DNA from: Eledone cirrhosa
Lineage: Eukaryota
Assembly (NCBI GenBank): GCA_964016885.1
Contig: OZ024751.1
Coordinates: 1,488,001 to 1,552,000 of the forward strand
Reading direction: 5' to 3'
Length of the DNA stretch: 64,000 nucleotides
A program made the position numbers and the translations under genes. The notes below the pieces were generated by a model. It was given only the letters and a program-made list of their open reading frames with translations. It did no database searches and had not been told where the DNA came from. Below, piece after piece: positions 3,112-11,184 of this stretch. Position 1 is the first letter of the stretch. Every line of letters starts with the position of its first letter.

Positions 3112-3245
3112 GATATCTGTGTGTATGTGTGTATGTATATATGTTTATACGTATGTGTGTGTGTGCCTGTGTGTATGTATTTATATATGTATGTATTTGT
3201 GTGTGTGTGTATATATGTGTATGTGTGGATAAGCCAGGTTTCTCT

Positions 3246-3299
3246 CATCCTGAAGATTGTAGGAACATTTTTTTGCTTTTAAGAAACCCTTGGTAAATG
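3246..3299 (+). ncRNA. Diverged hammerhead motif (family of 1700/4792)
   Basis: CATC-CTGAAGA-...-GAAA-CCCTTGG-TA-AATG; stem II degenerate. Confidence 0.6.
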
Positions 3300-3467
3300 G
3301 AATAATTGCCTTATGTTGCTTTAATATTTTACTACTATATATACGTATATGTAAGGTCCTTATGATTTATCTAAGATTGAGTTTTACATACACACACGCA
3401 TATACGTGTGTGTATGCGTATGCATGTGTGTGTGCGTGGTTGTGTATGTGTGTATATGTGTATATGC

Positions 3468-4215: not shown

Positions 4216-4426
4216 GTATATATATATATATGTGTGGATATGGCTATGTGTACGTATGTGTATGCGTGTACACACGCGCATATATGTATATATATATATA
4301 TGTGTATATATATGCGTGTGTATATGTGTGTGTGTGTGTGTATGTGTGTGTATATATGCATTTGTGTGTGTGTATGTGTGTGTGTGTATATATATATATA
4401 TGTATGCGTGTGTGTGTGTGTAGATA

Positions 4427-4470
<44 letters not shown>

Positions 4471-4590
4471 TATACATACACAGATTCTCATCTGTATTAT
4501 AACCTTCATGCTCTGCGGTGTACTGAGTGCCTTGCTTACTGTGGCTGCCTCCGATTCAACCCGGAATAACGTGTGTGTGTGTGCGCGTGT

Positions 4591-4627
<37 letters not shown>

Positions 4628-4791
4628 TTTCGTGTATGTGTGGTTGTATGGGTAGTCTTATTTTATTTATTTATTTATTTTTTTTTTAATTTTTATTTTT
4701 CCTTTCCTTCTTCCTTCACCAGCCTCACTTTCATATAGCTTGCTTTTTTTGTTTTTAAGATCCAAATTCAATAAACAAACCAGGATTGTTT

Positions 4792-4845
4792 CATTCTGAG
4801 GATTGAAAGCAAAACCTTTTGCTTTTAAGAAACCACTGGTAAATG
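4792..4845 (+). ncRNA. Type I hammerhead ribozyme motif
   Basis: CATT-CTGAGGA-12 bp stem II-GAAA-CCACTGG-TA-AATG. Confidence 0.8.
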
Positions 4846-4948
4846 GAATAATTGCCTTATGTTGTTTATTACATAATAATAATTAAGCTCTGTTGCTTAC
4901 ATAGAGCACTCTTTTTTCCTGGACTTTTCCGACGGAATTACTTCATTT

Positions 4949-5063
<115 letters not shown>

Positions 5064-5912
5064 TAAATTAATATTTGATGAACATTTACATGTTATAGTT
5101 GTAATTGACTAATAAGATCGCTAGAGTGAAAAATCTTAATTCAACAACATAAGGTCTGCCTGTACGATCTAGAAAATAATAAATCAATACTCACAGACTC
5201 ATATGGGCAAAAAGCCTTGGTACCTAGACACGTTTAAAATTCAAAATACAAACTTTTTCCGCAGATCGGTCAGAACTTCAAACTTCAAACATGTTTCACA
5301 AAGGATGGTATAATAGTAAAATAATTAACTAATTAGCAGTGAGTTAATCAACTTTTTCTGTGTTTATCAATAGGTACCCAGATAAAAATAAAAATAAAAA
5401 TAAAAATAAAAATAAAAATAAAAATAAAAATAAAATAACTCAACCTTAGAAAAATATCTAAGGTCTGGTTAGCGTAGCGAAAATACACGAGGTTTTGCAC
5501 ACGGCTTATTCCAGTCCTCTAACGTCCCACACATAGTGCTAGAAATAACAGCCGTTTGTATGGGATTACAAAATTCAGCTCACCTTGGGGAGCAGTGATA
5601 AATAGCTTAGAGTTTAGACTCAGAGAGGTCATTTACAATCATTTCAGCTCTAGGAATCGCTTCTGAGCAGTATAAATTAATATTTGATGAACATTTACAT
5701 GTTATAGTTGTAATTGACTAATAAGATCGCTAGAGTGAAAAATCTTAATTCAACAACATAAGGTCTGCCTGAACGATCTAGAAAATAATAAATCAATAAT
5801 CACAGACTCATATGGGCAAAAAGCCTTGGTACCTACAGTAATTTATACTGCTCAGAAGCGATTCCTAGAGCTGAAATGATTGTAAATGACCTCTCTGAGT
5901 CTAAACTCTAAG

Positions 5913-5920
<8 letters not shown>
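5064..5920 (-). mobile_element. Non-coding retrozyme-like element, 609-bp unit, ~1.3 copies plus an inverted terminal fragment
   Basis: 5064-5226 repeated at 5673-5835; 5840-5920 is the revcomp of ~5598-5678; flanked by (TA)n; contains HHR 5219-5378. Confidence 0.75.
5219..5378 (-). ncRNA. Hammerhead ribozyme, U3-A8 core variant, long stems II and III
   Basis: revcomp GGTACCTA-TTGATAA-ACACAG...CTTTGT-GAAA-CATGTTTGAA...TTTAAACGTG-TC-TAGGTACC (8-bp stem I, ~10-bp stem III). Confidence 0.75.
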
Positions 5921-5972
<52 letters not shown>

Positions 5973-5974
5973 GG

Positions 5975-6011
<37 letters not shown>

Positions 6012-6013
6012 CG

Positions 6014-6047
<34 letters not shown>

Positions 6048-6054
<7 letters not shown>

Positions 6055-6342
6055 TAAAATAACAGATTAAAGTTTAAGCAAAGAATCGCTGCTTTCACCC
6101 TTAACGGGATCTTCTGAAACTAACAAAGTCAATCTGTAAACGCAGAACTGGATATTTCAAAAAACGTTTACAGATTGACTTTGTTAGTTTCAGAAGATCC
6201 CGTTAAGGTTTAAAGCAGCGATTCTTTGCTTAAACTTTAATCTGTTATTTTAATAAATATTTGCTCTACGGTTCTTATATATTTGATATATATTTTCCTT
6301 ACCGAGCCCTCTTTGGATTTTAGTCTTCAATTTTATTATTAT

Positions 6343-6400: not shown

Positions 6401-6408
6401 TATATATA

Positions 6409-6633
6409 TAGGAACGAGTAGGACCCCGACGGCTGAGCTCAAGCCGTTTCGACGGCTAATTCTGGACTAAAAGAAAAAAAAAAAAAAAATCATTTTTTTT
6501 TTTGTCCAGAATTAGCCGTCGAAACGGCTTGAGCTCTACCGTCGGGGTCCTACTCGTTCCTATTACCCACTCTACTACCCTAAGTATTGAGTACTTTGGT
6601 GCGTTATGGTCCACCTGGTCCCTTACCACATTT
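6409..6633. mobile_element. Fold-back pLTR fragment with only the 3' half of a hammerhead (family of 48773-49447)
   Basis: Arms 6409-6467 / 6504-6562; TAGCCGTC-GAAA-CGGCTTGAGCTC..CCG-TC-GGGGT followed by the family tail. Confidence 0.75.
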
Positions 6634-8479: not shown

Positions 8480-9363
<884 letters not shown>

Positions 9364-9387
9364 CTGAACAAGGCACTCATATTCGCG

Positions 9388-11184
9388 ATGAATAGGACAG
9401 GCCTAACACGCGACGAGGTCCGAATCATACACGCCGCCAGAAAGACCCTGATCCGATTCGGTGGGGACATATGGACCCGGAGCGACTGGCCAAATAATTT
9501 TGACATTACAATGGGCTCCAGTGACTCCGCGCAGCTAACGGACTTGGTTGGGATATACATACTCTACGAGATCAGGAGAGAAATACCCAACCGAGACGAC
9601 GCACTATTCACCGTAGTGGACCACAGCACCACAATGGTCGAAAATACGAAGAGGAGAATTAGGCACTTCTTTAGCAAGGTAGGACTTAAGGTAGAGATGG
9701 AACCCAATAGAAAAATAGTGAATTTCCTGGACACCACCCTCAACCTCAACACCAAGCTACACCACCCATATCATAAACCCAATGAGAAGCTGGTGTATAT
9801 CAACGCTGGGTCTAATCACCCTAGATCTATAGTTAAGGCCGTAGTTAAGAGTGTCTCTGACAGGATCTCTAACTTGTCGGCCAATAAAGAGATCTTCAAT
9901 AGTAATGCTGATTACTATAACTCAGCGCTAGTTAAGGCGTCCCACAGCGATATGATCAGCTATAACCCTAAGGGACATGATCGAGATGACCCAAGTGTAC
10001 CCCGGACCAATACCCTCAGGGGCATGAGTCGCCCACCTAATACCTCGGTGACCAGTAGTAACACTCCCAGACCCCTATCCGTCACCACCCCCGGTAGAAG
10101 GTCCCGCATACCCCACCGGTCTAATACCTACAACGCTGAAGACCACTGTGCTGCGGAGCATAGGCACCCCTGGACCGGCCCCACAACCCGCCGAAACCTA
10201 ATTGAGCAGGGAGGCCGCACCTCGCAGGTTTATAACCCCACGGCGGGCCCATATAACCCTCATGATAGTGACCGCTCCGCACACCCGAGTGACACCAACC
10301 GAGCTCGACCTGAGCTGTGCACAACCACGCGATGGCCCACGGCGGACACCCAACAACCCCGCAAGAATAGGACCAGGAAAGTCACATGGTATAACCCTCC
10401 ACACTCGGTGGGTCTACGTACCAGCCTGGCTAGAACATTCTTTAGAGTACTGGATAAATGTTTCCCTAGGGCCCACAAGTACCATAAAATATTCAACAGG
10501 CACACAGTGAAACTTTCCTACTCAACCACACGCTCCGTAGCCCAGCACATAGCTGGCATAAATAGGAATAGGCTCACTGCCTCTAATACCACCGTAAACC
10601 TCGGAGCCACCCAACATAACCAGCACGCGGGACGAAACGGAACCCAGACAGGCCCAACTAGCACACCGGAACCCAACGACCTTGTGCTGATTGCGGAGGC
10701 TACCCAGCCAACGCCGAGTGATGGCAACCACGCGGTACATGTGGTGGGGATTAAGAAGTCATGTAATTGCAGAGACCCATCACTATGCCTCCTTAGTAAT
10801 GAATGCATGACGAAATACGTGGTCTACAGGTGTAAGGTCACAACCCCTAACTCGGAGCACCACTACATAGGATCCACAGCGACGAGCTTCAAAGATCGGT
10901 GGTATAACCATCGCTATTCCTTTAGCAGAATAGATAAGAGGAAATGTACGGCCCTTTCTGAATTGATCTGGAAGCTCAAACTTGAAAAGACCCCGCACTC
11001 TCTGGTCTGGTCCGTGGTTAGAAAGGTTCCCCTAGACAGAGGCGGGTCTGGTATTTGTAACCTCTGTCTTAGTGAGACACTCGAGATTCTTCATGGCGGA
11101 ACCCAGCTATTAAACAGAAGGGCCGACTTATTCGGTGCCTGCAGACACCTAAGGACGGGAACTTTCCTCAAGCTATATGGATAA
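9388..11184 (+). pseudogene. Penelope-like element ORF, 5'-truncated RT plus GIY-YIG endonuclease
   Basis: FDITMGS.DSAQL.DLVG, RDD, VNFLDTTLNL, YINAGSNHP, W.NPP, CNCR..LC, VVYRC..YIGST.TSFKDRWYNH, CNLCL.E, CRH. Confidence 0.9.

Follow-up and report, generated by a model that had tools for sequence, protein, structure and literature searches.

Structure of the insertion

The 64-kb window (the whole stretch of DNA analysed) contains, at positions 5064–5920, one copy of a multicopy, non-coding element with a 609-nt unit that bears a hammerhead motif. The longest ATG open reading frame of the unit is 37 aa and the GC content is 32%. With the first base after the predicted ribozyme cut taken as unit position 1, the insertion consists of a long arm on the minus strand, positions 1–609 followed by positions 1–163, and a short arm on the plus strand, positions 157–238 (Table 1). 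The 163-nt direct repeat within the long arm has a period of 609 and its two copies differ at two sites (5163/5772 and 5190/5799). A check for head-to-tail repetition gives 1.27 units for this one locus.

The short arm is an 82-nt inverted copy, 100% identical to a segment inside the long arm, and is likely to represent a second cDNA. The arms abut head to head at their 5′ ends with three bases intervening, and both outer ends are 3′ ends that lie within (TA)n. In this one insertion the outer 3′ ends correspond to unit positions 163 and 238, a spacing of 75 nt. The (TA)n microsatellite target is present on either side and displays no clear target-site duplication. A partial tandem (pLTR) with an adjoining inverted 5′-truncated copy is the arrangement by which Penelope-type insertions are recognised, and it is found here.

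The direct-repeat match breaks off exactly at 5835, after which the locus reads CAG and the unit predicts GAC. The first base past the predicted cut on the minus strand is 5226, and 5226 + 609 = 5835, so the register is exact. An earlier reading made from the sequence only had placed the end of the repeat at the first nucleotide after GUC of the hammerhead, with a few bases and an inverted fragment following. Both observations are borne out: the period of 609 holds to the nucleotide, and the few bases are the 3 nt that precede the 82-nt inverted copy.

Under a uniform null, the chance of a 5′ end falling on the cut is 1/609 = 0.16% per end. As the insertion has two 5′ ends, the value for it is 2/609 = 0.3% (about 1% allowing plus or minus 1 nt), and for six ends it is ~1%. 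These figures are uncorrected for the many features inspected in a genome scan.

The filler between the arms matches the continuation of neither arm, and no microhomology blurs the joint. Fold-back copying from the end of the short arm accounts for the 3 nt of filler and then predicts C where T stands, thus the first base of the long arm is not explained by the filler. An origin of the filler by fold-back copying is put forward as a suggestion only, since chance may well produce a local match of only 3 nt.

Table 1. Features of the insertion and its flanks (positions in the window)
Feature	Positions	Strand	Remarks
Left flank, (TA)n/(GA)n microsatellite target	4973..5059		
Long arm, pLTR-like partial tandem of one 609-nt unit and a further 163 nt	5064..5835	-	5′ end 5835, 3′ end 5064
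Downstream 163-nt repeat copy	5064..5226	-	3′ end (unit 163) meets (TA)n via 4 extra bases
Type I hammerhead motif, the only complete one of the insertion	5219..5378	-	
Stem I, 3′ strand	5219..5226	-	
Predicted cleavage site after C17 = 5227	5226..5227	-	junction intact in the DNA
Stem III, 20 bp	5228..5294	-	5294-5275 with 5247-5228; pair probabilities 0.84-1.0
Core G12 A13 A14 A15.1	5294..5297	-	
Stem II domain, 66 nt	5298..5363	-	active register 3 bp, closed by A10.1-U11.1
Core U3 U4 G5 A6 U7 A8 A9, U3-A8 variant	5364..5370	-	
Stem I, 5′ strand	5371..5378	-	pairs with 5219-5226; pair probabilities 0.87-1.0
Hexamer run (TTTTTA)n immediately upstream of the hammerhead	5385..5437	-	
Internal counterpart of the inverted arm	5598..5679	-	
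Upstream 163-nt repeat copy	5673..5835	-	starts at unit position 1; both departures from the majority sequence of the family are in this copy
Filler at the head-to-head joint, 3 nt	5836..5838		readable as a fold-back copy of 5848-5850 (5-bp DNA hairpin, -2.4 kcal/mol)
Short inverted arm, unit 157-238	5839..5920	+	3′ end meets (TA)n
Right flank, (TA)n/(GA)n microsatellite target	5921..6050		

The hammerhead motif and its predicted fold

The motif displays a type I core of the form (C/U)3-UGAN-(G/A)8-A: positions 3 and 8 are complementary, the GAAA is present, and UC is found at 5228–5227 on the minus strand (U16.1 = 5228, C17 = 5227), adjacent to a stem I of 8 bp. The GAAA (5297–5294) is situated 66 nt upstream of the cut, thus stem III is no minimal helix but one of 20 bp. 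A model with a minimal stem III and without G12 was dropped once this helix and the GAAA upstream had come to light. According to the predicted fold both stem I, which is open-ended, and stem III form (pair probabilities 0.84–1.0). The motif is beyond chance: its hammerhead stem score is 31, whereas of 300 dinucleotide shuffles 296 score 0 and the best reaches 13. The hammerhead region gives a fold z of −2.31. A descriptor scan of both strands of the window shows nine type I hammerhead matches, and the motif described here has the longest stems. Stem I includes a 6-bp palindrome that is present three times in the element (KpnI sites at 5219, 5373 and 5828).

Rfam at its gathering score gives no matches in the 64 kb, a search of little power as the canonical motifs at 44–46 kb are missed too. 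The 16 weak Rfam matches within 4600–6000 do not include a hammerhead and were rejected as microsatellite artefacts.

Stem II is predicted to prefer an inactive, slipped register. The slipped register has 6 bp, pairs G12 and is 3.7 kcal/mol better than the active register, which makes up 0.1% of the predicted ensemble in a calculation without tertiary contacts. The predicted fold suggests that cleavage may be slow or assisted, which would fit a unit junction that is often crossed. Natural hammerheads include examples with stems II of 1–2 bp, and U3–A8 is a natural covariation that is active in vitro according to earlier work cited there (both in the part of PMC3088659 available). The available part of PMC4209133 gives the U3–A8 core for ~1,300 Schistosoma Penelope-like element (PLE) motifs.

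Other hammerhead families and neighbouring elements

At least five hammerhead families are present in the 64 kb, none of them detected by Rfam, and the window is microsatellite-rich eukaryotic DNA, which we take to be from an animal genome, full of retroelement fragments. With 250-nt probes around the hammerhead cut from five of the families, 11 of 23 window alignments start inside the probe and only one of the 11 starts at +1, namely the 609-nt insertion; these are alignment starts and not verified insertion ends.

One hammerhead family adjoins the element and stands tail to tail with it across a common microsatellite. It is found at 4404–4940 (+), 1664–2138 (−) and 3231–3353 (+), with its hammerhead motif at 4796–4841 and 1749–1704. 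Further type I motifs with a short palindromic stem III are situated at 47680–48125, 52444–52669 and 36860–36914, one of them in a tail-to-tail inverted pair around (TA)n. Beside the insertion in (TA)n are also two long-palindrome MITE-like elements, 6047–6260 and 6408–6563, with arms of 96 nt and 71 nt, and more copies of these are found at ~52750–53040, 30450–30680 and 48760–49490.

Broken open reading frames at 9220–11184, 15269–16918, 27089–27784, 40118–42306 and 50205–50957 are, judging by their motifs, what we take to be fragments of a Penelope-type reverse transcriptase or of a GIY-YIG endonuclease. Two of the Penelope-like open reading frames share a 41% identity over 140 aa. Pfam leaves five of six candidate Penelope-like open reading frames unnamed and gives only a sub-threshold RVT_1 for 40408–42306, and a search for solved structures showed no match to the candidates. 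They are candidate mobilisers, with no sequence link to the element in the window; the pLTR sequence of the element has no match elsewhere in the 64 kb, an autonomous RT-GIY-YIG element included.

A 467-nt hammerhead array with the same build

An array of a 467-nt unit with six canonical C3–G8 type I hammerheads is found at 43899–46822. It has the same build as the 609-nt insertion, with head-to-head arms, a 3-nt filler and (TA)n at either 3′ end. These ends correspond to unit positions 229 and 303, a spacing of 74 nt as compared to 75 in the 609-nt insertion. A separate inverted piece between (TA)n tracts (43783–43862) corresponds to unit positions 219–303 of the array, with a 6-nt deletion in a hairpin. 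It starts 10 nt ahead of the upstream 3′ end, reaches as far as the downstream one and so parallels the short arm of the 609-nt insertion (157–238). The two units show no significant similarity (best E 0.034). By analogy, with one insertion per family as evidence for the spacing, this likeness speaks for start sites that are fixed, two in number, and for a short cDNA ending a little beyond the upstream site.

The 5′ ends of the 467-nt array are at positions 296, 119 and 219; none of the three is at the cut and all are far from it.

The left arm of the array measures 1876 nt, or 2 × 934 + 8. At unit positions 24, 25 and 98 its successive units follow an A/B/A/B pattern, and the right arm is all of the B type. 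A dimeric template copied twice, or duplication of a dimer, are possible origins of this alternation.

Related copies in sequencing reads

Six sequencing runs in four studies contain part of the element (best 0.45 of sampled words), and none of the listed runs containing it is RNA. Four of nine listed runs were aligned, to 5058–5384 only, a stretch that excludes the 5835 joint and unit positions 164–451. This 327-nt stretch is matched by 100 contigs and by 312 and 268 reads, with many variants, which shows a variable family of many copies. Molecule ends in the raw runs, which come from reduced-representation libraries, are at AATT sites. At position 5102 all covering contigs and reads differ from the window, and the runs may come from a related species or population.

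Read depth at 5217 as compared to 5231 is 178 vs 163 and 130 vs 116 in the two raw runs, i.e. 89–92% of the depth continues past the cut (163/178, 116/130). The slope across the cut is 1.0–1.1 reads/nt vs 1.1–3.0 just before it, thus no steeper, and the bin means of depth do not fit a step at the cut. The histogram of truncation points that the sequence-only reading had proposed as a check, run in part on these reads, shows no peak. No pile of loose ends is found at 5226 among the six best-supported listed for each raw run, with 38 rows in all beyond these lists. If these are ranked by read count, ends at the cut are at most 13 of ~178 and at most 12 of ~130 reads. This bound of 7–9% per crossing is ~50 times the uniform rate of 0.16%, and a small peak at the cut, up to ~7–9% of crossings, may be present. 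Most sampled copies run through the cut and cut-site ends are a minority outcome in the family. Copies that run through the junction are the outcome expected from circular or uncut multimeric templates.

Piles at 5103, 5138, 5238–5241, 5326 and 5331 coincide with AATT sites and were set aside as library cuts, and those at 5165 and 5173 share a consensus and look like a divergent subfamily. Another copy shows a head-to-head joint with 5′ ends at positions 23 and 456, a weak case of 3 reads with a 27-nt side.

Among 40 of the 50 variants, those that were listed, there is none in the core or in 5219–5230, and stem I has a single change that keeps the pair as G–U. Stem III shows six changes: three keep the pair, two are on both sides of one pair (their linkage is not visible in the reads) and one breaks a pair. 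Variable positions number 0 of 12 in 5219–5230 vs 17 of 81 in the neighbouring sequence, a difference that is not significant (Fisher p = 0.11), and raw depth over the core is only ~15. The change 5190 C>A in reads was rejected as a sign of two donor units, as the same reads have 4–5 other differences.

Pattern searches in public contig collections give no further copies. The 21 viral-contig matches to a 17-nt pattern are alike over those 17 nt only and are attributed to chance; a 25-nt degenerate pattern has no matches in metagenome, viral and prokaryote contigs, and a 20-nt pattern has none in metagenomes. A contig from run X4, which carries another organism label, is 100% identical over 95 nt (5197–5291) and departs from the element at unit position 30 into unrelated sequence.

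Proposed mechanism and alternatives

The long arm probably ends at the predicted cut because the template RNA was self-cleaved there, a reading that applies to one insertion (n = 1). It is favoured as the boundary is exact and as the simplest model of a stalled reverse transcriptase predicts an extra base, C17. The probabilities expressed here for this and other readings are judgements and not computed posteriors.

The insertion into (TA)n was likely the work of a Penelope-type reverse transcriptase, with two priming events on a single RNA. The two target strands would prime cDNA synthesis inside the unit, at positions 163 and 238, which are separated by 75 nt. The 3′ end of the downstream repeat copy (unit 163) would mark reverse-transcription start B, and the short arm would be the second cDNA, from start A. 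The short cDNA would halt just past the other start site and would likely gain 3 nt by fold-back. The long cDNA would cross one unit junction, run off the 5′-OH end at unit position 1 and then be joined to the short cDNA.

The junction could be crossed by two routes. The template may be a multimeric transcript in which only the upstream ribozyme had cut, or the enzyme may jump over the nick of a cut monomer whose ends are held together by stem I. Reverse transcriptases are able to jump between templates at RNA ends. In a monomer cut at both ends, positions 1–8 are predicted to pair into stem I beside the 3′ end (p 0.84–1.0). With the ends so held, a template jump would leave the same DNA and no uncut or re-ligated bond is needed. 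The sequence-only reading had taken an uncleaved or re-ligated junction to be required; given the predicted stem I clamp that requirement falls away. After the first pass the 3′ end would be held in hybrid, which could lead to run-off at position 1 on the second pass. The nick-jump route predicts exactly one unit + 163 nt. The route of a multimer cut only upstream is the simpler. The two differences between the repeat copies fit either route; the upstream copy has both, and they may have arisen by mutation after the insertion. For the 609-nt copy, a covalently closed circle acting alone as template was set aside, as it offers no end at position 1 and as a first pass would presumably leave the RNA tied up in a hybrid.

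In its full form the nick-jump route would make the locus the record of an entire Penelope-type retrotransposition cycle on a nicked-circle RNA: a monomer cut at both ends by its hammerhead and clamped in stem I, two reverse transcriptases starting at fixed sites 75 nt apart, the nick jumped once, then run-off at the same nick on the second pass and joining of the cDNAs. This version is tentative and on balance we doubt it. If true, a nicked-circle mechanism would need no RNA ligation to yield the tail segment, inverted arm and pLTR of Penelope-type insertions, and the 74-nt spacing found in an unrelated family would point to a common ruler. Two internal reverse-transcription start sites with a tail between them are described for an anole PLE. 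In this one in vitro system uncut RNA was the main template used, and RNA-seq reads with an end at the cut were absent (PMC11167929, in the part available).

A boundary of this kind could also be left on uncut RNA, by a structure-induced stall where the 20-bp stem III rises from the three-way junction and joining of the cDNA at that point, with no cleavage involved. Stem III is the strongest helix of the unit and begins 2 nt from the boundary, its base is one of nine helix 3′ bases counted (helices of 6 bp or more), and the predicted fold favours the inactive stem II. However, the simplest version of a stall copies the unpaired C17, one base further, and that base is absent from the long arm. 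The same enzyme also got past the identical junction at 5227, and in other copies 89–92% of read depth passes it. A stall is considered unlikely. Somewhat more improbable in our judgement is chance, in which the point where an ordinary Penelope-type insertion was truncated at its 5′ side or inverted fell on the cut by accident and was singled out later from many ends and motifs. In its favour, the reads have no peak at the cut, every other 5′ end examined misses the cut, including that of the short arm (position 157), and the many ends of at least five hammerhead families in the window offered opportunities. The positional probabilities given above, 0.16% per end and ~1% for six ends, weigh against it, and the 7–9% read bound leaves room for a peak ~50 times the uniform rate.

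It is very improbable that a later rearrangement at the DNA level, or an assembly misjoin, at the palindromic stem I produced both the boundary and the inverted arm. The palindrome does occur three times in the element, the assembly is repeat-rich with 200 N, and no displayed read or contig spans the 5835 joint, which is outside the aligned stretch 5058–5384. But the boundary is 2 nt past the palindrome and carries a novel 3-nt filler, both outer ends are in (TA)n, and an unrelated 467-nt family shows the same architecture and spacing. The repeat copies also differ at two sites, unlike an assembly duplication.

Self-cleavage of the template, as the sequence-only reading had proposed, is thus the best single explanation of one boundary, but reads from other copies show no peak that would extend it to the family. 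Its view of the locus as a genomic fossil of ribozyme activity is retained for one likely trace and not as a rule, as about nine in ten reads from other copies continue past the site. The 467-nt array, with none of its three 5′ ends at the cut, also speaks against that reading. The evidence amounts to one suggestive junction and not to a family-wide signature.

The role of the hammerhead in Penelope-type elements is stated as open in the part of PMC8557442 available. If the insertion does start at the cut, a cut RNA can be a template in the germ line, and the junction would be in vivo evidence for the U3–A8 core. In vivo processing of retrozyme hammerheads has already been shown (PMC7229834, in the part available). 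The weight of the present case is limited by its single copy, by the lack of a dominant peak in the family and by the fact that reading junctions as fossils is already established for R2 (PMC3774820, available in part). Insertion ends can be counted in any long-read assembly, thus the question is directly testable.

Comparison with known systems

The build of the insertion is comparable to several known systems. In L1 twin priming, two target strands prime on one RNA and head-to-head arms result. As compared to this, both primings here appear to be at fixed internal sites, and the long arm duplicates the sequence of the short arm.

In R2, which has an HDV-like ribozyme, the place of self-cleavage can be read from the 5′ junctions in the genome, where extra nucleotides are often present (Eickbush et al. 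2013, PMC3774820). In the available part of that source a junction at the cut site is the rule for full-length R2 copies, whereas in the 609-nt family it is a minority outcome at most. R2 is also another element with another ribozyme, described there without an internal uncut junction or an inverted arm. No report of insertion ends that track the cut in Penelope or retrozyme hammerheads was found in the literature that could be searched, most subscription papers lying outside it.

PLEs, as described in the available parts of PMC8557442, show partial tandems, an inverted 5′-truncated copy at the 5′ end and a (TA)n bias. The 609-nt insertion likewise has a partial tandem, an inverted truncated copy, a (TA)n target and two 3′ end positions (PMC8557442, PMC11167929, each available in part). 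However, it has no open reading frame, unlike Penelope-like elements, and its 3′ ends are 75 nt apart as compared to the 30–40-bp tail of PLEs (PMC11167929, in the part available). The U3–A8 core is common to the 609-nt element and the Schistosoma PLE motifs. The stem II closing pair is A–U here and G10.1–C11.1 in PLE hammerheads, and its U3–A8 core, 20-bp stem III and stem II domain of 66 nt together set the ribozyme apart from the minimal motifs of metazoan PLEs. A large helix III, present here, is described for fungal and protist PLEs and not for metazoan ones (PMC4209133, in the part available, for each of these motif comparisons).

Metazoan non-LTR retrozymes are the other close parallel. 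Like the 609-nt element, they are non-coding type I hammerhead units, multicopy and with a GC content under 50%, they occur in copies of more than one unit, and their proposed mobilisation is Penelope-like (Cervera and de la Pena 2020, PMC7229834; Li et al., bioRxiv 10.64898/2026.07.22.740005, both available in part). In these sources the typical unit is 150–450 bp, as compared to 609 nt here, and stem III is short and palindromic, as compared to long and stable here. The 609-nt locus, with 1.27 units and one complete ribozyme, is also unlike the metazoan retrozymes described there. Thus the element is non-coding, multicopy and under 50% GC, as non-LTR retrozymes are, but with one complete motif at the locus it falls outside the definition of an 'active' retrozyme (Li et al. 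2026), and the copy counts as a monomer-type derivative. Judged by sequence, the element would appear to work like a Penelope-mobilised retrozyme.
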